In this document: one piece after another, positions 19,194-53,690 of the stretch
Numbering within the stretch: the stretch's first letter is position 1
How the letters are laid out: every line of letters starts with the position of its first letter
Program-made: the position numbers and the translations under genes
Notes under the pieces: generated by a model
What the model was told of the DNA's origin: nothing
The model's database searches: none
Seen by the model: only the letters and a program-made list of their open reading frames with translations
Source of the DNA: Minutocellus sp. GHC0000111
Taxonomy: Eukaryota
Assembly: GCA_977018835.1 (NCBI GenBank)
Contig: OZ361260.1
Span: 3,286,001-3,350,000, forward strand
Reading direction: 5' to 3'
DNA: 64,000 bases

Positions 19194-19265
19194 CTTCGTG
19201 ATGGGAAAATGGATCTTCTGCACTTTTGCCCGACGACGGGAAGACCTACCTATCTTCTACTAGTA

Positions 19266-21913
19266 CACAGCCCCATCTCGTCTTGTTTCGCCGGTCGGAT
19301 GAAGCGTTTTTCGGCAGAAGACGAACACGTCACGAAGAAACCCACCAAAACCCAATCTTGTTCGTCACCCACTCTTTGACCGTCCAACACCATGGTGGTC
19401 CGTCGGCGTTGCGCCGGCGTATAACTATATTTTCGTACCAAATACGCATTCATTATCATGTTTGGATATAGTTGAAGCTTACTGTATCCTCAGATTGGCC
19501 TCCGCTGCGTATCAACGCCACGAACCATCGGCCTACTTTTCCTCCATCTGTCGGCCGTTCGTTCGTTTCTCTGGGGTGGCACCATTGCTCCGTCTTTGTG
19601 CTCGTCGTGCTCCCGTTGTGATGCCCCAGACCCTCTGGTACTTTCCCACGTTGTTGTTGATGATAAACTGCCGGGATTGCGCCGCACCCCCCGTGTGACC
19701 GACTCTCGCTGATGATCCCGACCGATCGCATCCCCACTCTCGACCTCCCGGAATTCCGATGTTGCGCCCGAGGAGAGACAGATAGCATTGGGATAAGTTT
19801 ATGCAACAATCAACCCGACAAAGGGACTTTTTGGTCTGGGAGATAAATGGGTGAGTTAAGAAGGACGTGATGTGTTTGTTTGGGTGTGCTATTTACTTTT
19901 TTGCTCAATCGCGACACTGTTTGTAAAAGTTGGATTGTGCAATTCATTTGTCATTGTGTAGCAGCAGTGCAGTTTCATTTTCTAATTTTACACATGCCCT
20001 GCTCCCATCTCTACATCCTCATCTCCATCGGTGGCCATCATGATCATTTGTTGGCGCTTGTCATCAGTTTCTGCTTTAACAGCTTCTTCGGTCCTTGTCC
20101 TTTTCCTTGTTCTTTTGCCACCCGAGAGTTTCGCTCCCGCCTCTCCTCGACCTTTGGATTGGATGCCCTCTCCTCAGCCTTGAACTGTGCCGTCTGTTGG
20201 GCCTCATGTCCCTTGACGCCCTGAGTCCGACGATCTTCCTTAACGCCCTCTTGGTGGGCTCGCTCTACAAACGATTCGTCGAGCCAATAGATGCCGCCCC
20301 ATCCATTCTTCACTAGCCAAATGTGTTGGTCCAAGATGTGATCTTCGAGTAAGTGCCACTTGGGCGTTGTGCTAATGCCGATTGCCCGTGCTTGCTTGAG
20401 GGCACTTGCAATCAATGCTTCAAGCTCTCTCACAGCCTTCTTTGCCTCATCATCCCATTTCATGCACCATTTCAGAAACCTGGAACATGTTGCGCGTCAA
20501 GAGTGTGGAGCAAATTAGAGCAAGCTTTGCAGAGCTCTTTGATGTCGTCATCCGTCATGCCATCTTCCTCGCGATTGTGCTCTAGGAGAGTTCCTTTGGT
20601 GGAGGTGTCATGGTGGATGAACTCTATTGTCCTTGGTTTCTTTTCTTGTTGTTGCCATCAGAAATGTTAATAGATAAAAAGCTCTCCAGCATTCTGCCAG
20701 CACTGCCCTTATTTTACCTGAGTCGGCCGCCTCAATGCCGGCCTTTTTCAGGAAATGGAAGTGAGGGGCATCGTCATCCTCGGCATCATCGACAGCTCCC
20801 ATCTCTGGCTCGCCATCACCGTGCTTCTGACGATTCTTCTCAAAGCACTGCTGCTGCATGTGTGCTTCATGTGTAGCGTCCTCTCTCTTGCAACATCAGC
20901 TTCGTCCTCATAACAGGGCACATAGTCCTCGTCTTCGTCGTCATCGTCCTCACTGATCTCGCCGGCCTCCGTCGTGGTCAGGGTGCCCACCGTCCCAACA
21001 TCGTCGTCATTGTCCCACCCATCGTCCTGCTGGCCATCATGCCCACCAGGGAACTTCTGGGCCTCGAGCAACATCTGCCTGTTGATTTCGTAGTCCATCG
21101 CCGCACATCCCACCGACACATGTGGTGCGACCGACTTGAGGAATGCATTACATGCCTTCGTCAAATTGAGCCGCGGCGGCGGTGTTTCGAGGCGAAATTG
21201 TTGCTCGACCGTGTGACCATGTCAAAAGCCATCCATCCATCCATCCATCATCATGTGGAGAGCGTCGGATGCACGAGGATTGACAGAACCGAGGCGAACA
21301 AACATGCTCTTTTTGTATGGGGTTCGCTGAACGTCGTCGGCAAGGCAGTGTCTTGATACCATTTCATCCCATCCATTCTGGTTGTCTGTCCTCACAAAAA
21401 ACACATCGCAGCAGTCTTCGTGTTGTTTCTTCTTCTTCAAACCCAAGATGCCCGCAGCGTGCATGACGGCGCCGTACATGATGGGACTGCATCCCAACAC
21501 ATTCATCAAGGAGTCGTTGCTGTTGCCGATGAAATTGTAGTAATGAAGTTCCTTTCTGCGAAGACGGACGAGTAGTTCAGCCAGGGCGTCCTGCACCACC
21601 GCAATTGTTGCTCTGTCTGCGGTGTGTTGACCGCGGGATTGCGGCCGTTATTTTTTTTGCTCATGGAGAATTATGGATCGAGACCAACGGGAATATCACC
21701 AGGATGTCGGGAGTACCTGGTTGGTCTCGTGCCGTAATTCTCCCACACCAGCGCGAGACATCACCTTCGTTCTGCACGTAGCGGCGGCAATTTGAATTTT
21801 TGCCGCCATGGTGGCTCGCGTTGGGCGCGCCGGTCGGTTGCTTCGCGCGCCGGCCGGCCACCGAAAGTGCGACCAAAAGTATGCGAGTCATCCGGCTGGC
21901 AGATGGTGCTGTG
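19266..21913 (-). mobile_element. CACAG-ended DNA transposon, RAG1/Transib/Chapaev-related, copy 1 (non-autonomous, 2648 bp)
   Basis: Termini CACAGCCCCATCT (19266) and AGATGGTGCTGTG (21913); 4-bp TSD AGTA at 19262-19265 and 21914-21917; near-identical inverted copy at 37927-40613. Confidence 0.92.
20044..21599 (-). pseudogene. Internally deleted DDE transposase of copy 1
   Basis: Fragmented ORFs 21222..21599, 20748..21164, 20608..20859 and 20044..20463. The last carries TPKWHLLEDH...GGIYWLDESFVERAHQ. Confidence 0.75.
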
Positions 21914-22017
21914 AGTACCTAGGCTAGGCCTAATCTTTTGCTTGCGTACAATTCGTCGACACCACAATCGCATGAGATAAAGTCTCAGCTTCAACTTGGG
22001 CTCAAATTTCTGCAACG

Positions 22018-23836
22018 ATGAGCTCCCAACGCCCTCTGAACGCCGTGGCTACGGCCCTTGCCATGGCAAGCAGTGCCGCAGCATTCGCCCCCTCATCCCA
22101 AATTGCATCCATATCCTCTGTCGCATCTCGGACGTCGGTAGTTTCCAATCTGGCCGTCGACCCAACCTCTCTCGTCGATGCCATCGATACCACCTCATCG
22201 GTCCTTTCCGCCGGAGGAGCTAATGCCGAGGGCATCATCGACGGAGTTACCACCACCCTTTCGTCGGCTGCCGCCTCGGTCTCTGCCTCGTCGACCAATC
22301 TCCTCTCCTTTGCCGACCAGGGCCAAAACCTCGCCGGAATCTTCTTCCAGGCGTCTCTTCTGCCGTATCTGACCTTTCTGTACTTTCTGTCCTTCCGTGG
22401 CAATCGAATCCCGGCCTTGGGCAACTTTGGCTGGCAATTTTTGCTCCTCTTCGTGCTTTCGACCATTCCCGGTGGTATCATTAGCAAGAGCGTCTACGGC
22501 ACCAGTTTGGCCGATTGCGATTGGCTTCATGGCAGTGCCGAGGCTCTGCTGACCATCACCAACGTGTTGATTGTAAGTTTGATGTGTTTGAATGCACATG
22601 TTATCCTGATGTGTTCATGTTGGGAGCATAGAAGGTATTCCGTTGAATTGTGTCTTTATATGGTTTTCCCAACTTACTATACATGTTATCTATTTGCACT
22701 TTCGGATAAAGGCTCTTGGATTCAAGAGTGCCATGACGCAGGAGGAGCCGATCCCCGTCGGCAAGCCCCGTCTTTTGGCTCTGGGCGCCTTCGGTCTTTG
22801 GGTAGCAGCCGCCGCCGCTGGTCCTCAGATTGGCTTCGAGGGTCATTCCGCCTTTCTCTTTGGTGCCGGCGATCTCCCCGCCGACGCTGTCACCGCTTTG
22901 CCATGGGCGTCGCACGCCGAGCCCGTCAATGCCCTCTCCATCCCCACGTGGGCCATTCACTTTTCCAGCGTATTCGAATTCCTCTTTGCCATGAGCCTCA
23001 TTTGGGACTTTGCCGAGGCCACCGGTAACGAGAAGTGGAAGGGACTGACGTGGGGTATGCTGCCCCTTCATGCATCGGGCATCGCAGCCTGCACGTACCA
23101 CTTTTTTTTCAACCCATCCTCGCTTCAGTTCTTGGTCAGTACTCAGGCTGGTCTGACACTGCTGGGAAATATCACCGTTGCCATTGCCGCCTATCGCATT
23201 GCCGTTAGCAACGGATGGACCCTGCGCGAGCTGAACCCCTTCTCCAAGACGGAAACCAGCCCCGAGGGACTTGCCATTGACGAGGCTGCCGCCATGCCGT
23301 TGCAATTGACCGAGGCCAAGGAGTCCAATGCCGTCCTTGTTGCGAAGCTCTCGGCGGTGACCCTGCTGACGTCGTACATTGTCAAGTATGGTGAGCTTGG
23401 ACTGGATCTGCCCTTCAACCCCAACCCCATTGCCGGAGCTGCCATCGTCCTTGGAATTCCCGCCATCACTGGTGTTCAGTACTACCAAAAGTCGCAGGCA
23501 GAGGGTGGAGAGATGAGTCTGTTTGGTGGCGAGGGTGGAAACCCGCTGAGCATGGACGACGTGAAGAAATTTGGTGTTGCCGGAACTGTGGCATATGTGT
23601 TGACCGAGCTTGCCTTCTGGGCGGTCGCATTCCCCGTGGCATCGACCTTGTTCTATCAGTCGGTTGGGCATTGGCCGGATGTCATCAATGACGGTGGTGA
23701 TCGGGCAGCTGTTCTTGCGAGTGTCTTTGCCGGTGCTAATATCGCTCGATTGCTCGTACCACTTCGTTTTGGCGCTGCTCTTGCATTGGCACCGTGGGTC
23801 GATGAGAATCTCATCAACAGGGAGCAAAACGCATGA
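22018..23836 (+). CDS. Plastid-targeted DUF3593 + Ycf49/DUF2499 fusion membrane protein; intron 22573-22711
   Basis: Presequence SSAAAFAP; FFQASLLPYLTFLYFL...LADCDWLHGSAEALL (DUF3593); NALSIPTWAIHFSSVFE...WGMLPLHASGIAACTYH (Ycf49-like). A phase-0 GTAAGT...AAG intron joins the frames. Confidence 0.85.
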
Positions 23837-24366
23837 GAAGATGGGTGGTGGTAGACTAACAGATTTACCAGTACCGGTACGACCGAAATGAAGTGGAGGG
23901 CTCTCAGATCAGCATTTCCCTGGTGATGCCCAACCACCGGCACATACCGGTACATACAGCTGCAGCTGTATGCTAACATGCTAAAACGCAATTCCACAAC
24001 CAATCGAATAGAAATACAATGCCTGTCTCATTACGCAATCTACTAATACCGGTATGACTGTACTGGTGGCCAAGCGTGCGAGAGGAGAGGGAAGCGAAGT
24101 GGCGACGACGAGAAGGACAAAAAAATTCCAGCACAAACGCGGAGAAGAGCTTTTTCCATGCGCTGACGCATTTTCACTGACGATGCATGGCGACCGACAA
24201 AAAGTCGTCATCATCAACCCCGAGACCATCGATCCCAACTCGGCCGGACGTGCCTCTTTCACAATTTGTGGCTGGAGCAGCGCCTCCACCTCCCAAACAC
24301 GCACCGTCTTTCATTCTACTTGCTCTCATAGATTTACAATTCTGTATATAATCGCGACAACAAAAT

Positions 24367-25320
24367 ATGTCCGCTGCTACCGTGCAACAAACAATGGAGG
24401 CCGCTCTTGCCGGCGAGCCGGAGGCCGTCGTCATGGCATTGCTCTCAGCTGTCTTTGCCATGGCTCTCGCCGTCGCATTCAAGGGCCTCGTCTTGGGAGC
24501 TCCCAAGTCGGCCATGAAGGCCGACGAGTTCCAGGACTTTAAGCTCGTCAAGAAGGAGATCGTCAGCCACAACACTCGTCGGTTTACCTTTGCATTGCAA
24601 ACCCCCACCACGCGACTGGGATTGCCCATCGGACAGCACATTACCCTCCGCTTTACGGATGCCAATGGGAAGAAGCACCAGCGCAGCTACACTCCCGTGA
24701 CCGGAGACGAGACCCTCGGCTTGGTCACCTTTGTGATCAAGATTTACAAGGCCGGCGTCCACCCCAAGTTCCCCGAGGGTGGCAAGATGAGTCAGCACCT
24801 CGATTCGCTCAGCATTGGGGACAGCATTGAGATGAAGGGTCCCAAGGGCCACCTGACTTACCTCGGACGGGGCACCTTCACGGTCAAGCAGATGCGCAAG
24901 CCGCTCCAGACCCGCACCGCCAAGCACTTTGGCCTGATCGCCGGCGGTACCGGCATCACGCCCTGCCTGCAGATCATCCATGCCGTCCTTTCCGATCCCA
25001 AGGACAGCACCACCACGCTCAGCCTGCTGTATGCCAATGTGAGCGAGGACGACATTCTGCTGCAGGAGGAGCTGGATGAGACGGCCAAGAAGTACCCCGG
25101 TCGGTTCAAGGTCCATTACACACTGGACAAGGCACCCAAGGGATGGGCCTACTCGGAGGGATTCATCAACAAGGATATGATTGAGAAGCACCTCCCGGCT
25201 CATGCCAAGGATGGATCGTCGCAGGTACTCATGTGCGGTCCGCCGCCGATGCTCAAGTTTGCCTGCATTCCCGCACTTACCGAGCTGGGTTTCACCGAGG
25301 ATGATTACTTTTCCTTCTAA
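24367..25320 (+). CDS. NADH-cytochrome b5 reductase
   Basis: HNTRRFTFAL, LGLPIGQHI, RSYTPVT, KIY, GGKMSQHL, GPKG, IAGGTGITP and MCGPPPM, plus an N-terminal anchor. Confidence 0.95.
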   Translation: MSAATVQQTMEAALAGEPEAVVMALLSAVFAMALAVAFKGLVLGAPKSAMKADEFQDFKLVKKEIVSHNTRRFTFALQTPTTRLGLPIGQHITLRFTDANGKKHQRSYTPVTGDETLGLVTFVIKIYKAGVHPKFPEGGKMSQHLDSLSIGDSIEMKGPKGHLTYLGRGTFTVKQMRKPLQTRTAKHFGLIAGGTGITPCLQIIHAVLSDPKDSTTTLSLLYANVSEDDILLQEELDETAKKYPGRFKVHYTLDKAPKGWAYSEGFINKDMIEKHLPAHAKDGSSQVLMCGPPPMLKFACIPALTELGFTEDDYFSF

Positions 25321-25533
25321 GCTAAAAACATTGCCTTGTTGAAAGTTGAGCGAAGCGAAATGGAATGACAGTAACGGAATATTAGCTTTCTACTCTAACT
25401 ACGCAGCCATCGGCATTCTTTCCTGGAATATTTGACCATATTGCGCGAAATGGCATAGCATTGCAATTCGATGTCGACTTTGCCTTCTATTGGCGCATTA
25501 GTTGCCAAGATCTTCCGCCACTCCAATACTCAA

Positions 25534-26486
25534 TTAACGCTCCATGGCCTCCGTCCGTGGGGCCTGCTGCTTTTCACGAAGGTCAATCTCGTGGTTGACC
25601 TGGGCAGACATACAACCGCTTACGCAGCAGAAGGTCACATCAGCAATGCCATTGACGATGCTGATACAGGCCCTCTCTCCATCCCAATCGAAGCAAATGC
25701 CAATGCAGCTGAGAATTACGGCAAAACACATCAAACAGTTGGAACAGCGGATGAGACGGACATCGTCCTCGTCAAGACCAAGACCATATTTGTCGCGGAT
25801 CAGCATGGAGTTGGTACTAGCAGCAAGGCCTGGGCATATGCACGCCTCCAGGCACATGCAGGGGACAGGGCAGGCGCTATCACCGCACTTTCCAGGCTGC
25901 AAGCAACAGCAGCCACCAAAGTACCCCTGACAACATTTGTAATTGCTCCACCCAGATCCGGGCTCAATGTGATTCAGTGCCTTCTTCCGCAGGTGAGTCT
26001 GTGCACACGGGAAGCAAATCATACTAGAGATCCAACAAGGACAGGCCTTGAATGGCGCCTGACACATGGTGATGGCGAATTTGTTGCTGTTGCCAGCGTA
26101 AGGGCCAAAAGCTGCCCCATACTTTCCTGGTATGGTAAGATTAGATAGAAAGATCGATAAGCAGGTGAGAATGTTATATTGCCAGCAAGGAAATCGGACC
26201 AAGTCGTCAAACGGTCACATGATATCGTGCGGTGTCGACATTCGCGTTGGAACAAAAGATAGAATGGGAGGATCGAATGGCAGGTGAGAATGGTATATTG
26301 AAATGTTGTCAACAAGGAAATTGGACCAAGTCGTCAAACGGCACATGATATCGTGCGGTGTCGACATTCCATAATTGTAGCCGTGGAACAGCAACCAGAA
26401 GATCAACAGCAGAACAAGCAAGGGCAGACCACACCTTTCGCCTCGTCCGGGGACAGTGGCTCGCTGGAAAAGCAAAAGAGGCACAT
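25534..26486 (-). CDS. PLAC8 cysteine-rich protein; exon 1 26486-26435, intron 26434-26127
   Basis: Exon 1 MCLFCFSSEPLSPDEAK-G|GT splices in phase 1 to CAG|GAAAG (GKYGAAFG). The body is Cys-rich: CFPCAQTHLR, YKCCQGY, CMCLEACICPG, IRDKYGL, GCMSAQVNHE. Confidence 0.85.
26143..26369. repeat. Imperfect ~120-bp tandem duplication inside the PLAC8 intron
   Basis: CAAGGAAAT(C/T)GGACCAAGTCGTCAAACGG(T)CACATGATATCGTGCGGTGTCGACATTC occurs at about 26186 and 26312, each preceded by AGATAGAA...GCAGGTGAGAATG. Confidence 0.85.
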
Positions 26487-26869
26487 GAGATGTGTATGTT
26501 TTGCTGTGATTTGAATTAACTCTAAAAGAAGGAGAGGAGTCACCACGGCAATAAGTGACGAGAGGGCGACTGAGGGCGAGAGGGCGGGGGTTGGCGGTGG
26601 CGCATGGCGCGGTTTCGGAGAATTGTACGAGGTCTATCTTAAGACACTAGTATCTCGCAGAACCACATGCTATGAGCTATGTAGAAATCAGTGAAAGATC
26701 AAGGTAGTTTATTTATCACTCTATCGAGCTCGCAGATGGCGGGCTTTTCTGTCCCTGCGAAATGACAACAGCATCGATCGAATCTCCAAAATTCAATCGA
26801 CGGAGCGACATCGAAGCATCAACGATCACCACCAATAACTGATAGCACAACATAAGTAACACACAGATA

Positions 26870-27658
26870 ATGGGCCAAGGAACATCCAAACTTCGTGCTG
26901 ATGCCGGCCTGGCTGATCCCACAACTGCAATCGACGGAGCCGCGCCCACATCAGAGGCTGGCACCTACACCGTGAGCCGAGGCAATTCTGAAGTCGAGCA
27001 TCAGCTCTCCAAAGCAGGCGGGGCCGATTCAACCGCTGAGATGTCTTCCGCGGCATTCGATGATCTGCCTCTGGGATTTGATGTGCTGTCGGTCCACAAC
27101 ACATCCACACCAAGTGTCTGCGCATCGGTTGCTCAAAACGACGGGTTGATGGACGACGGAACTCCTTCCCTCGTGGCCAGAGTCGCCGCGGACGAATCAC
27201 GTAGAAATTGGACGGTGTGTTGGGTTGACAAGCCCACTCATTCATCTCAGGCCGAGGATCCCGAAGCGTCCAAGGCATCTAGTTCCAAGCCATGCCGAAA
27301 GTGTGAAATTGAAGTGTCGGAAGGACGACATTCAGCCGTTGTGAAGGGTTGCGAGATCCATTCCAACCCGAAGGAAGACGTTGGTGTCCTGTCGTCCGAT
27401 GTCCTTCTCAAATTGGAGAAACCTGTTGGCATGGGTGAACTTTTCGCGACTCATTGTTGCACCCTGCTGGATGGCGAATCATCCGAAACCAGCAGTCCCA
27501 TTGCAGCATGGAAATGGTCCCACCCAATGGCAAGTAAGATGGATTTTGCCATCGCCAAGGGAGCTGATCTCACCCTTCATTTCATCCTGTTGGTGGTGAT
27601 GAACATCGTCCAGAAGGACAAGATGCTTGGTGTCACTCAGACTGGCGATGTTGTTTAG
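26870..27658 (+). CDS. Hypothetical protein with N-myristoylation-like start; possible LURP-one/tubby-like fold
   Basis: MGQGTSK start; C-terminal IAKGADLTLHFILLVVM resembles the tubby/LURP-one terminal helix. Confidence 0.55.
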   Translation: MGQGTSKLRADAGLADPTTAIDGAAPTSEAGTYTVSRGNSEVEHQLSKAGGADSTAEMSSAAFDDLPLGFDVLSVHNTSTPSVCASVAQNDGLMDDGTPSLVARVAADESRRNWTVCWVDKPTHSSQAEDPEASKASSSKPCRKCEIEVSEGRHSAVVKGCEIHSNPKEDVGVLSSDVLLKLEKPVGMGELFATHCCTLLDGESSETSSPIAAWKWSHPMASKMDFAIAKGADLTLHFILLVVMNIVQKDKMLGVTQTGDVV

Positions 27659-28006
27659 ATTGGTGTAACATTTACTGCTGAGTGCCGTACACCGCAGAGA
27701 TTAAAGGCAGCACTAGCATGTGCCTCTTCACCGCTATCTCGCTCATAGAAAGATCATGTGGCATAGTCAACACGAGAGTCACATGGCTACGATTATTTAA
27801 GCGAAACATGTAACAGCAAATTGAGCATAAATCCAGAAAGATGCACCTTTTGTGTAGATGCGGCAAAGCTTATTTAGTTAAGTAGCCCATCATGTTTCCA
27901 ATACGGGTACCGGAGTACGAGGATCGGCGGCAGCACAATCGAAGCGACTGAAGGCATCCTCAGCCGCACAACCCAGCCGCCATCTCCGACCACGAAACCC
28001 CGCATG

Positions 28007-30276
28007 CGAGGTCAGATTCGCGAGAAATCTCATGCTGAAATATTTAAGAAAATGGCTATTTTTACTCTAATTTTGATTTATCTTCATGTGAAACAATAAT
28101 TCGGATAAGACTTTAGATTTCAGCGGCTCTAATCAAATGGACGCGTTCGTGCGACGCGACGGTTCGGCCTCCATCTCGTCTTCATCTTGAACGATGGCAT
28201 GATACTCGCCTCGGATCGAAAGTACGATGCATTCGTCCCGGATCTCGCACCACAGCCAATCCGGGATGAGCTTGAGCTTCTTTAGCTCCCGCTTCACGCC
28301 GTTGAACTTGTAGATGAAGGTAACTGAGGAGTGGAACATCTCCGCGGCCTTGTCGTACACCGATTCAGTTATTGCCACGACATCATCCATGTCGAGGGGC
28401 ATGTTCTCGGCCCTTATCGCCCGGCAGACGAGTCGACTGACGACATTGAGGAGCATGTGCTTCTCAAAATCCTCGGGCCCGTCAATCTTGAGAGTTTTTT
28501 CCTGGTCAATGATGATGGCCAAGACAGCGGTGAGTATGTGTTCAATCCATTTGTGTCTCGGGCGGAAGTCGAAGCTGAGCATTTCGATGACGCGATCGGC
28601 ATACTTGGACTGGTATACTGCTTCCCAACGAGTGCCGATGATTCATCTGATTCGGCCGCCTTCCGTTCTGTCATCGACGATCTTGCAACGGCGACCCGGC
28701 GGTATGCTGCACCATGTCTCTTTGCAATTGCCAAGTGCAGGGAGCAGGCAAAGGTGGACTATTCGGTGCTGTCCAGCGCAGAGCATGGTGCACGATTTTT
28801 GGGATGGATGAAGGCGTATGGTGCTCTACCTGCATCCGAGAAGGCGATGTGGGAGATGAAGAGGAGATCTCATCTGGCTATGCAGCCATACATTCGAGAT
28901 GTTATTGTTGATGCTCTGATACGAAATCCTCGGGAATCTTGGCGGGAGCTGGAGGTTGATGTCAACTTTTGGTGTTCCTACTCGGCAATACGGCGGTGGA
29001 TAATGTCGCGGGAAGGGTTCCGGTACTATGCCGAAAGGATCATCCCTCTCCTTACTACCCATCAGATGGAGAAACATTTGGTATTTGCGCGGAAATTCCG
29101 AAACAATTGGGGGCTCGGCGGTGGCAAGTTTCTCCTTATTATGTTCGATGAGAAGTGGTTTTGGGGCTTGGTTCTTCGATCGTATGCCAAGCAAGTTGCA
29201 GAATTGGGTATTGATCCTCGGTCCTTCTCGGCATATCACCGAAATCACATCAACAAGTGCATGGTGGTGGCTGTCACTGCCTTGGCTTTTATTGACAGCA
29301 TTGAGAATGGCGGCATTGCGTTCAAGCTTGGACTTTTTCGGGCTCAGGCGCATAAAATTGCGAGGCAGATGGTAAGGGAGGCGGTGCGGCAGGCAGATGG
29401 TAGAATCAAATATTGCGGCCCGGTGGTTCGGAAGAAAGACGATCTATACCTTGTGGATTGCGCGGTGACTGGATGCAGCCATGGCACCCTTGATAATCCC
29501 AAGTTCCCACTGAAAGCTTTATTTGAGAACAAGATGTTTCCGGATGTTGAGGCTTTGGTCGGACCTGGTGGAAAGTTTGAAGGCTATGTCCCTATTTTTC
29601 AGGGCGGCAATGCTGGGCCCCATGCCGAGACTGAATTTGTGGAACATGTGGAAGGATACTGTCGGGACAAGGGATGGCGTTGGGAACCTCAGGCCCCGCA
29701 AATGCCCCATATGAATGTTCTTGATCTGTCTGTTTTCCCTTGCATGTCAAAGCGGCATACAATGTTGAGCCGCGATCGGGAGGGGCTGAAGGTTTTGACA
29801 GAAGATCAGACTTGGGATGCAGCGGAGGAAGTTTGGATGGGGCTGGAAAACTGGAAGATCGCATCGGCATACATCCAGGCTCATAGAATTGCAAAGAAGG
29901 TAATCGTTGCAAAAGGCAACAATGATTTTCTTGGAAACGGTGAAGGCATGCATGTTGGGGTGCGAAAGGATTTCAGGCCGACTGAAAATGGCATGGTTCG
30001 GATAGATGGGAAAATTATCGCTCCTCCTCCTGCTGATCCAACCATGGATAATTAGTCCTGCGGTGCTTTTAAGTTATGTTATGTTTAAAATAATACTAGA
30101 TTATTTAGATTCGAGCTATATTTGTGCTACTACACACACATGCCGTACATGCATGTGTAGTGCTCTCTTGTCAGTTTTGATGGTTCCGGCTTTACATGCA
30201 TGTGTCCGTGTCCGGGTTGCGGGCCCAAAAATCGACATTTTTTGGTCCGGGCCCTTTTCTCGCGAAACGGACTTCG
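28007..30276 (+). mobile_element. IS630-Tc1-mariner (plant/oomycete mariner-like) DNA transposon
   Basis: 21-bp TIRs CGAGGTCAGATTCGCGAGAAA (28007-28027) and TTTCTCGCGAAACGGACTTCG (30256-30276), 3 mismatches. Right flank is TA, left flank TG. Encloses a transposase ORF. Confidence 0.75.
28331..30055 (+). CDS. Mariner-type DDD transposase, second catalytic Asp replaced by Gly (true start uncertain)
   Basis: FDEKWF (D1), FQGGNAGPH (usually QxDNAxPH) and QAPQMPHMNVLDLSVF (D3, with 38 residues between positions 2 and 3). Confidence 0.85.
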   Translation: MEHLRGLVVHRFSYCHDIIHVEGHVLGPYRPADESTDDIEEHVLLKILGPVNLESFFLVNDDGQDSGEYVFNPFVSRAEVEAEHFDDAIGILGLVYCFPTSADDSSDSAAFRSVIDDLATATRRYAAPCLFAIAKCREQAKVDYSVLSSAEHGARFLGWMKAYGALPASEKAMWEMKRRSHLAMQPYIRDVIVDALIRNPRESWRELEVDVNFWCSYSAIRRWIMSREGFRYYAERIIPLLTTHQMEKHLVFARKFRNNWGLGGGKFLLIMFDEKWFWGLVLRSYAKQVAELGIDPRSFSAYHRNHINKCMVVAVTALAFIDSIENGGIAFKLGLFRAQAHKIARQMVREAVRQADGRIKYCGPVVRKKDDLYLVDCAVTGCSHGTLDNPKFPLKALFENKMFPDVEALVGPGGKFEGYVPIFQGGNAGPHAETEFVEHVEGYCRDKGWRWEPQAPQMPHMNVLDLSVFPCMSKRHTMLSRDREGLKVLTEDQTWDAAEEVWMGLENWKIASAYIQAHRIAKKVIVAKGNNDFLGNGEGMHVGVRKDFRPTENGMVRIDGKIIAPPPADPTMDN

Positions 30277-31444: not shown

Positions 31445-32307
31445 CTTGGTTGTATTGGGGGTTTGGATTGAGATACGAGGACTAAAGGAATGGTGGTACC
31501 GATGGCAAGGCGGAGAAAATCGTCACATACGTGTTTTGATCGCATACTCCTGAAAAGTTAAGTCGCATGCTCAAAATGCGGCTCTCAGGTGACGGCCAGA
31601 CGAAGGGTGGAGGTAGGTGAGCGAGCGAGCAAACCGAACTGCATGAACAACCCGCATAATTGATCGTGTCACATCAACCAATCATCGACTTCAACACCCA
31701 ATCACAATACCGCCAGCAGTCAAATAATAGAGCCGACCATGCTAGGAACCACATTTTCCGCCGGCACTACGCCAATGAAGTCATCTCCCTTGATCCGCCG
31801 TCACTCCACGATGCCCGCTGACCTCTCCCCCGAAACTGAAAAGTGGCACCTGCTTCTCAACTGGTGATTGGAAAACTTGGAAACACGAAGTTGGCTGGAT
31901 GACGCCGTACTTCTCCCTCGGAGTGTGGTTGTCAATTGCAATGGTTTGGTTGCACACTCATTATTGATGAATTGTCAAGGCGGTACATGTAGATGGAAAC
32001 TAGAATCGCTTCAGTTTTGGAGCTGAAAGAAAAATAATTGGTGTAGTAGATAGCTCAAATTTACCGTGTGCCTCGCGCGTGTCCACCTCGGTCTATCAAC
32101 AGTGAGCATGTACATGTAGTACGAGAACGCCAATTGAGCTCTTCGATGGATGACAAAGGTTCCCCACCCCGACCGACCGACTGATGTTCGCAATCAGTCC
32201 TCAGACTCGAAAAGACACAACTTTCGGTTGCATCGAACGCCGCTTTGAGGGAGAGGAACGACCCCTGAGCATTCCAGGAGCACCTATCAACCAAAATAAA
32301 GGCATGG

Positions 32308-33216
32308 TTGTGTGTCGTGATGCATTCAGGATGCAAAAGAATGGCGCATGTAACCGCTCAACGATGGCAACGTCGAATTTTACCACTAAACCACTGGCAC
32401 ACATTTGACTCGATCGACTGCATGCAGACCGAACCAATACAAAGCAATTGTCGGAAAGGGAAGTCTCCCGAAATTTCTCTGTGCATTTTGAGGATATCAA
32501 AATATTTAACCACAAGTCAATCAAGGGAGATCTCCGCTCCACGGCCTTCCTTTGCCTTCCGCCAGCGGATCTCATCTTCGGCGGGTGTGAGGATATCGAA
32601 ATCGATTTGTTCCAACGCCGCCCCGCCGACCTGTATCATGGGCTGCAGGCGCCGATTCTCCACTGCTACTAGTACTGTGGCTGTTCCGGGACCGGACAGC
32701 CACAATAACGAAATTCACCCGAAGCAATCGCGCCGGCAAGGATTGTCCGCCCACCGCCGCCGCCGGCGCCGGCGCCATCGAGGTCGAACCCAAGGCGATG
32801 GGGACAAGCTTCCCCGTGCTACAACCCCCGACACGCCAAGTCCTATCATTGAGGTCCATTTTCGTGTCAATGTTGGACGGGTGCCGTCATGTGAGGAGAC
32901 CATGAAGCATCTGAATTCCACTGCCCCCTCTGGTTGGTCCGTCCAGAAAGTGTCTTACGACACCAACATCCATTTATTCACGGCGTCCGTCATGATTACA
33001 AATGCGCAGGAATGGGACAGCATCAGCATGAGAGACCGCCACATTCAGCTTGGTAATATTGCTCTCCAACCTTTCATGCGCTGCTCGGGATGCAACAAAC
33101 TCGGCAAGAACATGCTGCTTTGTGGCGCATGCAAGTCGGTCACATATTGTGGCGAGGATTGCCAGAAGGACCACTGGACCGACATCCATCGAGAGCAATC
33201 AAAAGGCAGCTCTTAA
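32308..33216 (+). CDS. MYND-type zinc finger protein (start uncertain)
   Basis: C-terminal CSGC...CGACKSVTYCGEDCQKDHWTDIHREQS; the final Cys is replaced by Ser. Confidence 0.7.
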   Translation: MCVVMHSGCKRMAHVTAQRWQRRILPLNHWHTFDSIDCMQTEPIQSNCRKGKSPEISLCILRISKYLTTSQSREISAPRPSFAFRQRISSSAGVRISKSICSNAAPPTCIMGCRRRFSTATSTVAVPGPDSHNNEIHPKQSRRQGLSAHRRRRRRRHRGRTQGDGDKLPRATTPDTPSPIIEVHFRVNVGRVPSCEETMKHLNSTAPSGWSVQKVSYDTNIHLFTASVMITNAQEWDSISMRDRHIQLGNIALQPFMRCSGCNKLGKNMLLCGACKSVTYCGEDCQKDHWTDIHREQSKGSS

Positions 33217-33458
33217 TTGACTGCTACAAAATTCCCCTGTAGCAACCAACACCTAATATTTCAATTACGAAACTACAATCGTAATAAAATAAGTACAGGT
33301 AGATCTAGTGTAATCACAATTATACTTTCTAGATCAAGTTAAGTTTTGGTACTGACACCTTTAGTGGATCTACCAGCAAATACATAGGCAAATACATTTA
33401 TTTTGATATTTTTTTTGCATAGAATCAATCATATACATACACTCACACCTACATAAAA

Positions 33459-34340
33459 TTACAAGATGCAAGGGAAGCAGAAGGATATTCCACAGCATCC
33501 AACTTTTGTAAGATTTGGTTTCTCATCGAGGGTGGGAGCATCGCGCATCGGGATGACAAATGTCTGGTGGTCTGGGAGGTAATATTTGAAGAGCAGGTGT
33601 TTGATAGGTGGTGGCATCGAAGCAAGGAACTGCTCATAAAATTCCTTCGTCGCCCATTCCTGAATTGCCAGGACAACGGCCGGGAGGAATACCTTCGCCA
33701 TGGTCAGCCCACCGGCCTGAAGAATTTTCTCGACAATGGCGCCCTCCTCCTCTTGGGTGAAGTTTTCCCTCAAAATCGCCGGCATGGCCTGCTCCTCTTC
33801 CTTTAGGTGCTGTCTCATGTCGGTGTTGAAGGCGGGGATCTTCTCAATGAGGCTGGATATTTCCTCGGCACAATTTGTACCCTTCTTGTTCAAAATCTTC
33901 TCGCAAACATCTTTGATGGTTGTCATGGCGGCAACGAGTTCCTCGTGGGACTTGGAGAATTCCTTCTCGGGATACTCTGCCTTCTCCTTGATCCAAGGGA
34001 AGTAGATTTTCTCTTCAGCATCGTGGTGTTCTTCGACGGTGTCGTAGAAATAGTCGCAATACCACTCAGCGAACAGAGTGGCCTTCCAAGCGGAATCATC
34101 CGTTGGATCGTCAGGCATGGCGGCAACGCTATCGACCATGGCCGTCATTTGCCTTCGGATTGCCTCATGAGGAATGAGAAGGCCGACATCCGCCCAGTCC
34201 ATGGGTGGGAAATCGTCACTGAATACATCGCTCGTCAGCTTGTTTGCAATGGCAGGAGAACCACTCTTCTTGAAGTCGTTGCCAGAAAGATTGTAGGACC
34301 CTCGCCTGCTGGAACGGTTGGATACGTCGAGAGTCTGCAT
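33459..34340 (-). CDS. Hemerythrin HHE cation-binding domain protein
   Basis: PHEAIRR, EEHHDAEEKIYFPW, SHEEL and HLKEEE; Cys-rich C-terminus. Confidence 0.85.
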   Translation of the reverse strand: MQTLDVSNRSSRRGSYNLSGNDFKKSGSPAIANKLTSDVFSDDFPPMDWADVGLLIPHEAIRRQMTAMVDSVAAMPDDPTDDSAWKATLFAEWYCDYFYDTVEEHHDAEEKIYFPWIKEKAEYPEKEFSKSHEELVAAMTTIKDVCEKILNKKGTNCAEEISSLIEKIPAFNTDMRQHLKEEEQAMPAILRENFTQEEEGAIVEKILQAGGLTMAKVFLPAVVLAIQEWATKEFYEQFLASMPPPIKHLLFKYYLPDHQTFVIPMRDAPTLDEKPNLTKVGCCGISFCFPCIL

Positions 34341-34799
34341 GTTTCAATGTGGTGCGAGCAAGAAAGTAGAAAGTTTGCACGTGACGTATCGTGAGTATTC
34401 TAGTTCTCCGTCAATTTGCAATCTAGCTAGGCCTAGCGGCGTAGGAGCGTAGCTACCTACTAGACTAGCTAGAAGATAGTATGTGGCGCCTCGATAAGTG
34501 GCCCCAGTGTTCTTTGTGCTGAGCTTGCTTCTTTCTTCTTTCTTGCGAGCGCTCTTGGCGATGGCGCGCTTTTCTACACTCGCGCCTTGTGACAGCACCA
34601 GTGCTCCCTGTAGAAAGATCTGTTACCGGTAGTACTACGTAGTAGACTTATACATGTACATGTAAAGGATGAACGCTAAATAACGTTGTCACTCTTTGCC
34701 AACTCTTCTTTATAGAGAGAGAGAGATGGTTTAGAAGAAGTACCGGAACTGACCGCACATCGTCTGGACCAGCCAACAAAAGGCGCGGTTTCAACTAGA

Positions 34800-36293
34800 G
34801 AGTGATTTCACGAGAGAGCAGACACCCCCTCCGCGATGTTTCGTAAACATTGTACCAAAGTAATTTTATTGCTGATTACTGCTTAGAAGGATGTTGTAGA
34901 CCATAATCAACAATAAAATTACTTTGGTACAATGATCTTGGGTGTTAATTTAGCACATCTTATAGATACGGAAGAGAGTGTTTTGATTTGGTCTTAAATT
35001 ATTTTTTTGGGGATTGATATAGATGTGCTGCTTGAGAGAAAGAAAATTTTGTATCGAATTTCATTATAAAACGAAACCCATTTGCTCAAACAAGAGGTGC
35101 CACAAGATGTGTTGCCGATGTGCCTCCCATTGAAACTAAACAAGAATACGGTGCACCGTACCCTTGTAATAGCCTTCCACAACACTGTGATGCAGCAGGG
35201 GACTTGCGATTACCTTTTTGAGGCTTGAAAAAGTCGTTCGCGTTGTGTCCGATTTTTTCGACAGTTTCCGACGTTCCATCACGACCATGTTCGCCCGATG
35301 TGCAGCACCACCCCCGCCATCGCACACACTCTGGCCACCTCGATGCCTTCCTGAATATCACTGGAAGGGATTGCTGGGTGGTAGTGGGGCGTCAATGCGT
35401 GCCTGCTCCGCAAAATGTTGCCCAGGGACACTGCCACCCCCATCACACCACCCGCCCGAAGTTGGTTCGGATGCTATTTCGTGGTCCATGCATCACTTCC
35501 GTTTCACTGATCAGTCGCTGCTGCGCCCATGTGTATATACCACGAGCAGTTAAGTGGGGGGTGGTGGCTTCTCTTCACAATTCATCGAGAAAACTGTGCC
35601 CAACGTCCTGTTTCTGGTGTCAGCACCAGATTGCACCTTCATTGCTTCTGCCGCCCGAGAGGAAAGAAATCTGATAAAACGACCAAGCCAACACGTGGGA
35701 TCGATGGATACAACAATAAATTAGTATCCTGCGTGCTGGTGATGCGTGAAGAATCAGTGCTTGAGGCTCGAGGAGGGTTGTAGTTGGGGATTCGCTACTT
35801 TCGGAAGCTTTTTCTTTTCATAGTGACGGCCACGAAGATGCAAAGATGGGGTCCAATGCCGACCCTTTCGTGCCAAACCGCCCCCCACATGATCCGAGTG
35901 GAAGTCATGCTGGCCAGGGGGGGATTGAAAGGGCTGTAGAGAATCATGAGCTATTCTTCTTTGCCATTTTGAGGGGTAAAAATATTTGAAATTTCACGGG
36001 TGTGAGGAGATGTTGCTAAAATAGCACATGATGTACGAATGGATGTTCTTTCAAGTATTCAACACTCACCTAATGTATGTAGTTGGTGTATGCATATATT
36101 GGCTTGGGGCCAATCATTGTTATGCCAACATTAGATGGCCTTCTTGTTGAGATGAATTCTCCCTTGCTTTCGTCGCGTTGAGTGAGGCCATTTAGTGGGT
36201 TCATTTTTTACACTGGATAAAACATCGTATAAAAAGTTTTTCTAGTGGCTACATGTTTACGTCAATTTTGTCGGCGGTCTCGTGAAATCACTC
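34800..36293. mobile_element. Non-autonomous DNA transposon with GAG termini and 4-bp TSD (Sola-like), 1494 bp
   Basis: Perfect 16-bp TIR GAGTGATTTCACGAGA (34800-34815; 36278-36293), extendable to 25 bp with 3 mismatches; TAGA duplicated at 34796-34799 and 36294-36297; no intact ORF. Confidence 0.8.
34848..34934. repeat. 31-bp-arm inverted repeat (hairpin), 25-nt loop
   Basis: CATTGTACCAAAGTAATTTTATTGCTGATTA (34848-34878) pairs with TAATCAACAATAAAATTACTTTGGTACAATG (34904-34934), 1 mismatch. Confidence 0.9.
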
Positions 36294-36389
36294 TAGATCT
36301 ACTGCTATACAATCCCACGCTGGAGTGAAACTGTATTTCCGAATAAGATCTAATTCTAAGTTAGTTATGTTTCGTACGGACGGCTTTAC

Positions 36390-37832
36390 CTATGCCCAAA
36401 CCCACCACCATTCTTCCGACTTGCGTTCGCGGTCGGCAGCTGTCCCATTTATTTCGAATTCGTCGCCCGACTGTGATGTCATACCGTTACTGCTCCTGAC
36501 AGAATCAGGATTTAGAGATTCCGTATCCTCCCTTGCAATTTCTTTTTTGATCTCCTTTCTCGCAAAGTAGATCGTTACAATAATGGCAAGAAGCCCGCAC
36601 GCCCCGGTGACGGAGAGCAAAACTATGTTCGACAATGTCCAGTCCTCCGCAATGGAGCTGTTCTTGAGCGAACCGGCCGTGGCACCAAAGAGCACGGTGA
36701 GGAGCTGTGACGGTATGATGCCAATCATTGAGTTGACAAAGCTAGACAATTGCACACCCGTCACCCCACCGATATAATTAAGCGCAGAAAATGGAATGAT
36801 CGAGCACAATCTGAGCAGCAACATGACCTTGAATCCCGATCGCTTCAGAGCCTTATCCACTGCGCCGATGATCGGATACCGTTTCGCAAACAGTTTGACA
36901 AGATCACGGGTCATGTAACGAGCTCTGGCAAAGGCAATGATACCTCCGATGCAACTGCCTAAAAAGCACGTCACCATAGCCAGCGCCATTCCATATGCAA
37001 AACCGTAAACCTCCACAAAGACAAATCCAGCCCCAAAAGTCATTAGGAATGGAGGAACAAACATGAGCGTCGTCAGGATGAACATGCCGACGAATGCAAA
37101 GGACGAGGCGATGCTGTTTTGGTCCATCCATTTGAGGAACAGCTCCAAACCGGCGTGGATCTTGCTGTCCTCCCAGAACAGTCCAAATAGATCGGCGTAC
37201 ACGACGCATGCCACCACAAAAAAGGCGGCGGTAATCAACTTCTTCTGCCACGATCGGTTTCGGTACCAGGCGATGAGTTCCATGATGAAATGCTTGTTGA
37301 TGTGCGGCGTTGTGTCGGGCGCTGCTGCAGCTGCTCCCGTGGTTGTTGCAGCGTCGCCAGTTTCCGGATCAACGTCCGACGATGACGACGGAGGAACCAC
37401 AGTGAGCAGTCGCGGCGGTGCCATTGGGATGTGCTGGTGCTGGTGGTGACGATGATTTATGTGTAACGCCTCTCGTCGTGTTGGCGATTCGTCAGTATCT
37501 CCACTGGCAACTTGCTCCATGCTTCTCATCAGGGCAATGTCCGCCGCCGCGGCCTCGGGAGATGGGAGAGAATGGTATCCATTGGGATCGTCCGTATCGC
37601 CCAACCCACCGGCAGTGGCAGCGGTGGCAGCAGCCGCCGCCGCCGCATTGGCGGCGTCGAAATCGGACGACGACCGAAGGTGACCGTCACTCGAATCGGT
37701 CGAACCCAGAGTTTGTTGCACCCCAGATCTCTCCGACGATGGAGAGGCGTTGTTGGTGTTGGTAATATTGTGCTCTCCACCATCCACTTCGGAGGTGGAA
37801 GATGCCATTAGAACGACTCGTTGGCCTTGCAT
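36390..37832 (-). CDS. VTT/SNARE-associated (TVP38/TMEM64-like) membrane protein
   Basis: FVPPFLMTFGAGFVF, GSCIGGIIAFARARY, GFKVMLLLRLCSIIPFSALNY and GIIP. Confidence 0.9.
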   Translation of the reverse strand: MQGQRVVLMASSTSEVDGGEHNITNTNNASPSSERSGVQQTLGSTDSSDGHLRSSSDFDAANAAAAAAATAATAGGLGDTDDPNGYHSLPSPEAAAADIALMRSMEQVASGDTDESPTRREALHINHRHHQHQHIPMAPPRLLTVVPPSSSSDVDPETGDAATTTGAAAAAPDTTPHINKHFIMELIAWYRNRSWQKKLITAAFFVVACVVYADLFGLFWEDSKIHAGLELFLKWMDQNSIASSFAFVGMFILTTLMFVPPFLMTFGAGFVFVEVYGFAYGMALAMVTCFLGSCIGGIIAFARARYMTRDLVKLFAKRYPIIGAVDKALKRSGFKVMLLLRLCSIIPFSALNYIGGVTGVQLSSFVNSMIGIIPSQLLTVLFGATAGSLKNSSIAEDWTLSNIVLLSVTGACGLLAIIVTIYFARKEIKKEIAREDTESLNPDSVRSSNGMTSQSGDEFEINGTAADRERKSEEWWWVWA

Positions 37833-38586
37833 CTCATGTGCTGAAATGAGGTTGGCAGTGAGGTTCGACGGAGTTCGACTGCGAGCGAGCCGAGGCTCGT
37901 TGCGGCGATTTTTTTAGGCGAGGGCCCACAGCACCATCTGCCAGCCGGATGACTCGCATACTTTTGGTCGCACTTTCGGTGGCCGGCCGGCGCGCGAAGC
38001 AACCGACCGGCGCGCCCAACGCGAGCCACCATGTTCAAATTGCCGCCGCTACGTGCAGAACGAAGGCGATATCTCGCGCTGGTGTGGGAGAATTACGGCA
38101 CGAGACCAACCAGGTACTCCCGACATCCTGGTGATATTCCCGTTGGTCTCGATCCATAATTCTCCATGAGCAAAAAAAATAACGGCCGCAATCCCGCGGT
38201 CAACACCGCAGACAGAACAGAGTTGCGGTGCAGGACGCCCTCCTGGCTGAACTGCTCGTCCGTCTTCGCAGAAAGGAACTTCATTACTACAATTTCATCG
38301 GCAACAACAACGACTCCTTGATGAATGTGTTGGGATGCAGTCCCATCATGTACGGCGCCGTCATGTGCACTGCGGGCATCTTGGGTTTTTGAAGAAGAAG
38401 AAGAAACACGAAGACTCTGCTACGATGTGTTTTTTGTGAGAGGACAGACAACCAGAATTGATGGGATGAAATGGTATCAAGACACTGCCTTGCCGATGAC
38501 GTTCAGCGAACCCCATACAAAAAGAGCATGTTTGTTCGCCTCGGTTCTGTCAATCCTCGTGCAGCCGACGCTCTCCATGATGATGG

Positions 38587-39772
38587 ATGGATGGCTTTCG
38601 ACATGGTCACACGGTCGAGCAACAATTTCGCCTCGAAATGCCGCCGCCGCGGCTCAATTTGACGAAGGCATGTAATGCATTCCTCAAGTCGGTCGCACCA
38701 CATGTGTCGGTGGGATGTGCGGCGATGGACTACGAAATCAACAGGCAGATGTTGCTCGAGGCCCAGAAGTTCCCTGGTGGGCACAATGGCCAGGACGATG
38801 GGTGGGACAATGACGACGATGTTGGGACGGTGGGCACCCTGACCACGACGGAGGCCGGCGAGATCAGTGAGGACGATGACGACGAAGACGAGGACCATGT
38901 GCCCTGTTATGAGGACGAAGCTGATGTTGCAAGAGAGGACGCTACACATGAAGCATGCATGCAGCAGCAGTGCTTTGAGAAGAATCGTCAGAAGCACGGT
39001 GATGGCGAGCCAGAGATGGGAGCTGTCGATGATGCCGAGGATGACGATGCCCCTCACTTCCATTTCCTGAAAAAGGCCGGCATTGAGGCGGCCGACTCAG
39101 GTACAATAAGGGCAGTGCTGGCAGAATGCTGGAGAGCTTTTTATCTATTAACATTTCTGATGGCAACAACAAGAGAAGAAACCAAGGACAATAGAGTTCA
39201 TCCACCATGACACCTCCACCAAAGGAACTCTCCTAGAGCACCACAATCGCGAGGAAGATGGCATGACGGATGACGACATCAAAGAGCTCTGCAAAGCTTG
39301 CTCTAATTTGCTCCACACTCTTGACGCAATGTGTTCAAGGTTTCTGAAATGGTGCATGAAATGGGATGATGAGGCAAAGAAGGCTGTGAGAGAGCTTGAA
39401 GCATTGATTGCAAGTGCCCTCAAGCAAGCACGGGCAATCGGTGTTAGCATGACGCCCAAGTGGCACATAATCGAAGATCACATCTTGGACCAACACATTT
39501 GGCTAGTGAAGAATGGATGGGGCGGCATCTGTTGGCTCGACGAATCGTTTGCAGAGCGAGCCCACCAAGAGGGCGTTAAGGAAGATCGTCGGACTCAGGG
39601 CGTCAAGGGACATGAGGCCCAACAGACGGCGCAGTTCAAGGCTGAGGAGAGGGCATCCAATCCAAAGGTCGAGGAGAGGCGGGAGCGAAACTCTCGGGTG
39701 GCAAAAGAACAAGGAAAAGGACAAGGACCGAAGCTGTTAAAGCAGAAACTGATGACAGGCGCCAACAAATGA
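38587..39772 (+). pseudogene. Internally deleted transposase of copy 2 with predicted 73-nt intron 39101-39173
   Basis: GCC GAC TCA G|GTACAAT...CAACAAG|AG AAG AAA CCA joins ORF 38587 in frame with ORF 39263..39772 (TPKWHIIEDH...LDESFAERAHQ). Further frameshifted coding sequence lies upstream. Confidence 0.7.
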
Positions 39773-40470
39773 TCATGATGGCCACCGATGGAGATGAGGA
39801 TGTAGAGATGGGAGCAGGGCATGTGTAAAATTAGAAAATAAAATTACACTGCTGCTACACAACAGCAAATGAATTGCATGATCCAACTTTTACAAACAGT
39901 GTCGCGATTGAGCAAAAAAGCAAACAGTGCACCCAAACAAACAAACACATCACGTCCTTCTTAACTCACCCATTTGTCTCCCCCAGACCAAAAAGTCCCT
40001 TTGTCGGGTGATTGTTGCACAAACTTATCCCAACACTGTCTGTCTCTCCTCGGGCGCAAAACCATTGTCGGAGTTCCGGGAGGTCGAGTGGGGATGCGAT
40101 CGGTCGGGATCAGCGAGAGTCGGCCATGCGGGGGGTGCGGCGCAATCCCGGCAGTTTATCATCAACAACAACGTGGGAAAGTACCAGAGGGTCTGGGGCA
40201 TCACAACGGGAGCACGACGAGCACAAAGACGGAGCAATGGTGCCACCCCAGAGAAAAAAACGAACGGCCGACAGATGGAGGAAAAGCAGGCCGATGGTTC
40301 GTGGCGTTGACACGCAGCGGAGGCCAATCTGAGGACATGCAGCAAGCTTCAACTACATCCAAACATGATAATGAATGCGTATTTGGTACGAAAATATAGT
40401 TACACGCCGGCGCAACGCCGACGGACCACCATGGTGTTGGACGGTCAAAGAATGGGTGACGAACGAGATT

Positions 40471-40580
40471 GGGTTTTGGTGGGTTTCTTCGTGACGTGTT
40501 CGTCTTCTGCCGAAAAACGCTTCATGGGTTTTGGTGGGTTTCTTCGTGACGTGTTCGTCTTCTGCCGAAAAACGCTTCAT
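40471..40580. repeat. Perfect 55-bp tandem duplication, subterminal in copy 2 only
   Basis: GGGTTTTGGTGGGTTTCTTCGTGACGTGTTCGTCTTCTGCCGAAAAACGCTTCAT at 40471-40525 and 40526-40580; single in copy 1. Confidence 0.95.
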
Positions 40581-40699
40581 CCGACCGGCGAAACAAGACG
40601 AGATGGGGCTGTGGGCCACCTGGCCACCTCCATTGTTGAACCGAAGCGATTGAAAGCATCACATCATGCTGTGCAGTCAACCATGGCCGCCCGCAAATC

Positions 40700-53663: not shown

Positions 53664-53690
53664 ATAAAAGTCACATTTTAACCCATATGT

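Follow-up and report, generated by a model that had tools for sequence, protein, structure and literature searches.

Why do two copies of one transposon differ chiefly where TA, CA and TG stand against one another, and which of these dinucleotides came first? The question is raised by a 64,000-nt stretch of the genome of the diatom Minutocellus sp. GHC0000111 (contig OZ361260.1, positions 3,286,001 to 3,350,000; hereafter the window), which is gene-dense, has a GC content of about 52%, and holds copy 1 of the transposon at 19266..21913 on the minus strand and copy 2, inverted relative to copy 1, at 37927..40613 on the plus strand. A first reading from the letters alone (the sequence-only reading) had proposed a repeat-targeted hypermutation running from TpA to CpA and TpG. 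We compared the two copies with each other, with their protein relatives, and with other elements, and observed that the A of TA, whichever strand it lies on, is changed to G, so that TG or CA results; a pyrimidine is favored on the 3' side, and there is weak activity at AAT.

BLASTN and protein matches identified the copies as DNA transposons belonging to the CMCT clade (RAG1/Transib/Chapaev-like). They are about 2.65 kb each and 94.7% identical by BLASTN. Both carry 13-nt terminal inverted repeats beginning CACAGC, and each is bounded by a different 4-bp target duplication, AGTA at 19262-19265 and 21914-21917 for copy 1 and GGCC at 37923-37926 and 40614-40617 for copy 2, so they represent separate insertions. 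Copy 1 is non-autonomous and internally deleted: its broken transposase remnant (19991..21664, minus strand) carries 13 insertions of 2-8 nt, and the deletion junction falls near 20582. The broken remnant of copy 2 (38166..39825, plus strand) has the same internal deletion near 39236, and copy 2 further contains a perfect tandem duplication of 55 nt at 40470-40579. Both remnants match residues 1-328 and 901-1097 of a full-length relative, P0057, with the center absent. Five insertions occur in both copies at identical reference positions, and the copies are therefore sisters.

The alignment of the copies spanned 2674 columns, in which 71 mismatched columns amounted to 56 substitution events. 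More than half of these events (31/56) paired TA with TG (11), TA with CA (8), or CA with TG (12), and 45 TA steps were retained in both copies. CG was involved in 6 events (3 CG/TG and 3 CG/CA), with 167 CG steps identical in both. The sequence-only reading had put the TA, CA and TG differences at about two dozen and the sites with CA in one copy and TG in the other at about 8, below the 31 and 12 that we counted; the five examples it quoted, at 38896, 39531, 39552, 19891/19895, and 19511, are all present. Isolated transitions were found at 19 of 104 purine-strand A sites after T, as opposed to 15 of 1047 after other bases (Fisher p=1.8e-12). There were 15 adjacent mismatch pairs, whereas 20,000 random scatters gave 1.9 on average and never more than 9. 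CG steps seldom carry a single change, so that twelve double hits on opposite strands of CG cannot be believed; at TA, 19 of 64 sites show a single difference, and double hits are to be expected. In the coding remnants of the two copies, the observed/expected ratio of TA was 0.29 and 0.26. It was 0.58 over the remainder of the window, and the lowest value there among 269 equal-sized windows was 0.39.

It had been suggested that copy 1 holds TA where copy 2 holds CA or TG. Such sites are real, but the pattern is not one-way: at the single sites TA is kept by copy 1 at 15 and by copy 2 at 4. One end of copy 1 (19266..19900, 635 nt) keeps TA at 11 sites that are changed in copy 2, with no converse case, compared with 4:4 in the remainder (p=0.018, for a boundary picked after the data had been seen). 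A DUF1997 gene has its first ATG (19193) about 70 nt away from that end. Both copies are placed between divergent open reading frame (ORF) starts (19193-22018 and 37832-40700), with the first ATG some 70-105 nt away on both sides, and since all four element ends are thus near ORF starts, gene proximity alone does not explain the TA-keeping end. We also observed that the double (TG/CA) sites run 9:3 toward the plus strand of the window and the single sites 4:15 toward the minus strand (Fisher p=0.008, a post hoc comparison). A sister-chromatid split of double lesions was considered as the cause of the 9:3 ratio and dropped, as the single sites run the opposite way.

To which state the family points was determined from 54 proteins of the 121 cluster members (56 were listed, and the fragments P0009 and P0051, which did not match the transposase frame, were removed). 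These proteins had been selected for long frames, the comparison was made at the protein level, and codon context was borrowed from the window copies; 505 of the 517 mapped codons had a unique inferred ancestor, and the 12 ambiguous codons were dropped. The outgroup consisted of 9 proteins at 61-73% identity, with P0299 kept out, and columns with fewer than 8 members were left out. Among 34 columns in which the major residue fell below 90%, the outgroup held the TA-coded residue at 23, indicated a non-TA change at 2, was uninformative at 9, and had a CG, CA or TG state as its majority at none. Columns 132 and 180, at which the TA-coded residue is absent from every family member, are among the 23. 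In pairwise BLASTP comparisons, 119 distant homologues (<50% identity) had Tyr at columns 158 (3/3), 218 (1/1), and 242 (1/1), and at column 973 (n=98) they had Val in 45, Ile in 25, Met in 9, and Thr in 5. At the 16 Tyr-type sites the family itself had 193 Tyr, 164 His, 161 Cys, 2 Ser, and 1 Arg, that is, a single Arg in 521 residues. The motifs that the sequence-only reading had restored by writing TA were borne out, in that full-length family members and outgroups read G-I-S-I-T-P-K, and DEDYVP and FVER are the family majority. On these sequence comparisons, TA is evidently the original state, as had been proposed, and the double product CG is hardly ever reached.

The family proteins also gave the spectrum of change. 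A>G occurred after a 5' T in 443 of 1802 cases (24.6%; 53 sites), after A in 30/3549, after C in 28/4579, and after G in 3/6771, so that the rates after bases other than T were 0.04-0.9%. Changes after A were mostly at AAT (26/910), while two sites, at which the context was probably assigned wrongly, supplied 16 of the 28 after C. Transversions did not exceed 11/13539 (0.08%) in any class, T[G>A] stood at 6/3761, and CpG decay reached 22/3228 (0.7%) compared with 0.14-0.24% for other G>A contexts. Removal of two near-duplicates left these figures almost unchanged. The coding strand (237/1018) and the template strand (206/784) were struck alike. Flanking bases had a strong influence: with R for purine and Y for pyrimidine, rates were 0.417 for RTAY (321/770), 0.146 for RTAR (69/474), 0.149 for YTAY (52/349), and 0.005 for YTAR (1/209), with p=1.2e-6 for RTAY against the rest in a site-level test.

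We then asked how the hits had accumulated. Both products were present at 20 of 22 two-way sites, four gametes were found in 90 of 99 site pairs (a count that gene conversion could raise), and neighboring hits showed no strand coordination (63/128, with 62.0 expected). The load per copy ranged from 23% to 100%, an overdispersion matched by none of 2000 permutations. Taken together with the strand parity, these results indicate that most hits occurred independently, one at a time, after insertion. Six same-strand hits within 115 nt of copy 2 (19421-19535) had raised the possibility of processive single-strand editing, which we rejected as a general rule because the family-wide concordance of neighbors equaled the permutation mean at all three distances. 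Some hits are inherited when an element duplicates: near-identical family pairs share 25/25 and 31/33 states, with a mean z of -0.11 over 1063 pairs, and the sister copies in the window share 25/33 states where 17.3 are expected.

A second kind of change accompanies the substitutions. The copies differ by 22 indels. Of these, 19 are tandem duplications, with a very high load of 2-4-nt ones, and only two are 1 nt long. Relative to the family reference, the coding remnants carry 25 insertions of 2-8 nt (13 and 12, the five shared ones included) and no short deletions save the overlap at the deletion junction. Family proteins contain 26 distinct in-frame insertions and 7 distinct deletions, and the proteins of a Tc1 family described below contain 5 insertions and no deletions. 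A host control gave no insertions and 1 deletion in 2095 identical residues, and the insertion bias may or may not be peculiar to transposons. Judged by eye, the insertions are not centered on TA steps. The 2-8-nt insertions are probably a second process.

Was the TA change confined to this family? Between the two copies lies an open Tc1/mariner-type transposase ORF (28328..30055, plus strand) that is only lightly hit, with residues 127, 403, 440, and 541 in TA>TG/CA states against the family majority. The element around it (28007-30276) may have a 21-nt inverted repeat (28007-28027 / 30256-30276), and the ORF has about 190 close protein relatives, those listed sitting on the same large assembly. 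In a replicate set of 30 proteins of the 192 cluster members, A>G occurred in 85/1330 cases after T, 3/2398 after A, 0/2378 after C, and 3/3225 after G (at most 0.13% after bases other than T), and the 3' pyrimidine preference was repeated (RTAR 2/277). Three further Tc1 clusters from the same assembly had Cys or His at 24-35% of Tyr-type positions, while control residues varied at 0.5-0.7%. Among four clusters outside that assembly, which lie on short contigs, three (P0007, P0187, and P0210) showed no excess of Tyr>Cys/His (1/15, 0/30, and 1/22 columns). The fourth, P0189, showed an excess in 8/18 columns, mainly from one protein. P0370, a Tc1 protein of the P0189 cluster from a Logan contig, has 7 Tyr>Cys/His and 4 Ile>Val/Met changes against its cluster and retains 3 Tyr, against 12 in P0367, which suggests that the process acts in another organism.

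Non-coding DNA of the window gave similar results. A MITE-like (miniature inverted-repeat transposable element) sequence at 45033..45873 has inverted ends of 21-22 nt, no clear target duplication, and an internal direct repeat of about 100 nt. TA survived there among TA, CA and TG steps at 0/43 RTAY, 9/77 mixed, and 13/42 YTAR sites. A TA-poor non-coding tract at 52860..53690, with limits set by eye and probably another element, kept TA at 1/43 RTAY, 1/63 mixed, and 11/40 YTAR sites. A 35-nt tandem repeat at 53691-53760 closes the TA-poor tract (52860-53760). Short ORFs in 44208-44843, 46283-46819, and 62041-63095 had RTAY values of 0/21, 0/13, 1/17, and 0/14, all small numbers; the ORFs at 44208-44843 and 46283-46819 flank the MITE-like element divergently.

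Our searches turned up one earlier description of such a process. In Bigelowiella natans, according to the accessible text of a preprint, integrated NCLDV (nucleocytoplasmic large DNA virus) and virophage DNA undergoes TpA-only A:T>G:C mutation at about 1000 times the background (Mettrop et al., bioRxiv 10.64898/2026.01.13.699255). There, the mutation is restricted to DNA that is foreign or silent, the signature arose in Illumina-sequenced mutation-accumulation lines, 19 amplicons of single-nucleotide mutations were Sanger-confirmed, their region of origin being unspecified in that text, and transposon domains were enriched among TpA-poor genes. The mechanism is given as unproven; an adenine deaminase is proposed, with an ADAT2-like candidate. 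The suggestion that the process in the window was undescribed thus does not stand. Both the concentration of A:T>G:C at TpA and the ancestral TA are found here, as are the products TpG and CpA and an uneven load, between copies here and between lineages there. The hosts and targets differ: Bigelowiella belongs to the Rhizaria, its target was a single-copy viral insert in which new mutations were measured, and transposons were implicated by composition alone, whereas here the host is a diatom, the targets are multi-copy cut-and-paste transposons of two superfamilies, and the changes were inferred from copies and outgroups. The T-A-pyrimidine preference, the weak AAT class, and the co-occurring short insertions are additions to what the main text of the preprint presents. 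Our literature searches found no description of TpA hypermutation in diatoms, the sole match being that preprint. We regard the feature as real and its polarity as correctly called by the sequence-only reading; it is of a kind described once before, now with a diatom host, cut-and-paste transposons, an extended context, and insertions.

Is the process directed at repeats? Concentration in mobile DNA, as had been claimed, was supported by the RTAY index: host ORFs stood at 0.239 and other DNA at 0.235, but the copies only at 0.105. In a neighboring cytochrome b5 reductase gene, 8/8 Tyr were invariant in 20-22 relatives, a control that is confounded by selection. The named relatives of this reductase are diatoms, and its 91%-identical match belongs to a 90% cluster that includes a Minutocellus polymorphus record, in line with a host that is most likely Cymatosirales-like. 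P0366, a copy of the reductase encoded on the megabase-contig assembly from which the transposon relatives came, differs from the window protein at 3/308 residues, so that assembly represents a very close strain or haplotype and is not letter-identical. Targeting of repeats as such is unproven, since the main Bigelowiella target is single-copy and a host-type ORF in the window is depleted alike. This ORF (26846..27658, plus strand; 262 residues, with a weak LURP-one/Tubby-like match) lies just upstream of the Tc1-like element, has an RTAY value of 0/35, and encodes 1 Tyr, 7 Cys, and 8 His; it is possibly a gene copy struck by the same process and speaks against strict transposon specificity. 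Conversely, a host tandem duplication of about 95 nt at 26150-26369 keeps the TA steps in its shared part, although it is too short to decide whether repeats trigger the process, and the multi-copy Tc1 element in the window is only lightly hit.

We lean, with moderate confidence, toward an enzyme of the host as the agent that makes the TA to TG/CA change in the chromosome; it would probably be an adenine deaminase and would be guided to mobile DNA that is silenced. The adenine at TA would be deaminated to inosine, and the inosine would pair with C at the next replication, fixing A:T>G:C. A single hit would abolish the TA step and the opposite strand would no longer be a target, which would explain why the CG product is missing. 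Hits would accrue singly after insertion, ruining transposase codons for Tyr, Ile, Val, Leu, and Asn, and would be copied onward whenever a struck element duplicated again. The single-copy target in Bigelowiella and weak signs here suggest targeting by chromatin state and not by homology pairing. We favor adenine deamination because it yields exactly A>G, because ADAR prefers U before A (cited in the accessible text of Mettrop et al.), and because loss of the TA step explains the missing CG. Several points weigh against this interpretation. Neighboring hits lack the coordination that a processive single-strand deaminase would tend to produce, the insertions are unexplained by a deaminase, and evolved TadA enzymes, in the available part of PMC10085711, are only slightly biased against a 5' G, far looser than the rule here. 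The -2 purine preference is absent in the Tc1 family (RTAY 0.081, YTAY 0.074), the N-terminal outgroup is mostly the single protein P0006, distant homologues favor His at column 941 (19/77; Tyr 11) and at column 20 (4/5), and selection confounds the controls from host genes.

T>C on one strand cannot be distinguished by sequence from A>G on the other, so the altered base could be thymine: a TET/JBP-type enzyme would oxidize it to 5-hydroxymethyluracil (5hmU) or 5-formyluracil at TpA of silenced elements, and mispairing with G would then produce T>C as a by-product of a silencing mark. Uncoordinated strands would suit such a passive lesion. Yet 5hmU normally pairs with A, and the TC context, which the purine strand shows as G[A>G], has the lowest rate of all here (3/6771), and we consider this explanation rather unlikely. 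The dinoflagellate precedent resembles our case in altering A:T pairs on repeats, where 5hmU aids silencing, and in Crypthecodinium it is reported, from older work, to replace T preferentially in TA and TC (PMC11572971). It differs in being, in the accessible portions of both reports, a silencing mark rather than a mutator (PMC11572971, PMC11071213); moreover, 5hmU is described as lacking a sequence preference in Breviolum (PMC11071213), and diatoms are not mentioned in the available part of PMC11572971. The short insertions would be covered, together with the substitutions, by an error-prone polymerase of the Pol eta type filling repair patches in transposon chromatin, which would wrongly place G opposite T, with TA affected more often than AA, and generate short duplications by slippage. 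One process could then account for 25 insertions against no short deletions, but Y-family polymerases are expected to show a broad error spectrum, whereas transversions here are at background, TA exceeds AA about 29-fold (49-fold in the Tc1 family), and strand-coordinated tracts are lacking. The 5' order of T >> A > C > G, with the weak AAT class, does resemble the WA motif (A preceded by A or T) as given in the accessible part of PMC11817618; against this, the main text of Mettrop et al. reports no raised indel rate in hypermutable regions, and we judge the polymerase unlikely.

A modification on both strands might also cause a long-read base-caller to report G for A, in which case the DNA would really be TA and a locus would show TA, TG or CA at random. 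Two products at a site, conflicts in the four-gamete comparison, and a lack of strand runs would follow from this as well, and most of the family proteins derive from a single assembly of megabase contigs. Logan contigs are mostly short-read, however, and P0370, with its 7 Tyr>Cys/His changes, comes from one of them. Separately placed near-identical copies share 25/25 and 31/33 states (these pairs may be assembly duplicates), CG is nearly absent (1 Arg in 521), and in the accessible text of Mettrop et al. the signature was found in Illumina lines. A sequencing artifact is unlikely, and we hold mis-calling of this form to be highly so. Scarcely credible in our view are cytosine processes, whether methylation decay from a CG ancestor alone or combined with a RIP-like (repeat-induced point mutation) change of CA to TA. 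Diatom transposons are CG-methylated by DNMT5 (accessible part of PMC9998398) and there is the small CpG excess, but outgroups hold Tyr or Ile, Arg or a CA/TG state is never the majority, and 167/173 CG steps are identical in both copies. TG and CA are also the products of CpG decay in such methylated transposons, which is present at a low level here; it starts from CG, and in these copies the rate at TA exceeds it about 36-fold (0.246 vs 0.0068). RIP of ascomycete fungi likewise consists of dinucleotide-specific transitions on both strands that amass in mobile DNA and wreck coding sequence. It makes C>T (CpA to TpA) and so enriches TA, whereas TA is depleted in these elements and T[G>A] is rare. 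The earlier claims that the change is opposite to RIP and is not CpG decay are accordingly upheld. Damage by UV photoproducts at TA or by psoralen-type agents would not spare host DNA and was set aside on that ground.

Mutational defense in eukaryotes is familiar chiefly from C>T chemistry (RIP, APOBEC, and methyl-C decay). If true, a TpA-specific A:T>G:C process in a diatom would carry the observation of one preprint over to another major group of algae and to ordinary transposons, in organisms that can be cultured and are open to knockout. It would also point to a natural activity that modifies adenine in DNA and has interest for base editing. TA hits distort the ages, consensus sequences, and annotations of diatom transposons, because 75% of pairwise amino-acid differences among the family copies fall on 44 TA-bearing codons. 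More speculatively, and with considerable doubt, we suggest that an adenine-editing defense may be shared by diatoms and chlorarachniophytes across the SAR group (stramenopiles, alveolates, and rhizarians). Such a system would read chromatin and not copy number, rewrite T-A-pyrimidine in any silenced DNA, stray host gene copies included, and stop near active promoters, with an insertion-biased repair adding the 2-4-nt duplications.

The placement of the transposon itself was examined further. The CMCT clade unites EnSpm/CACTA, Mirage, Chapaev, Transib, and RAG1 (accessible parts of PMC12730594 and PMC4411706) and has 5'-CA..TG-3' termini and target duplications of 2-5 bp. Both copies have CACAG ends and 4-bp duplications, and D615, C632/C635, H978/H983, and E1004 (P0057 numbering) are conserved over 53 aligned sequences. 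The termini and residues agree with the clade's description in the available text of PMC12730594, from which the window copies depart in being frameshifted and in missing about 570 central residues. No Pfam family matched the transposase, so its subfamily is not fixed. PDB sequence searches with the transposase returned nothing or coiled-coil noise, a RAG1L profile matched only at E=0.091, Atlas matches to RAG1 clusters were weak (score 0.86-0.89), and the Chapaev label, whose mark is an N-terminal Chapa zinc-finger domain, is tentative. A metagenome scan with P0003 gave just 2 distant loci (41% over 41 residues), which were not used. Elsewhere in the window, AT-rich intergenic DNA at 34848-34934 contains a 31-nt inverted repeat whose arms are 97% complementary and 25 nt apart.

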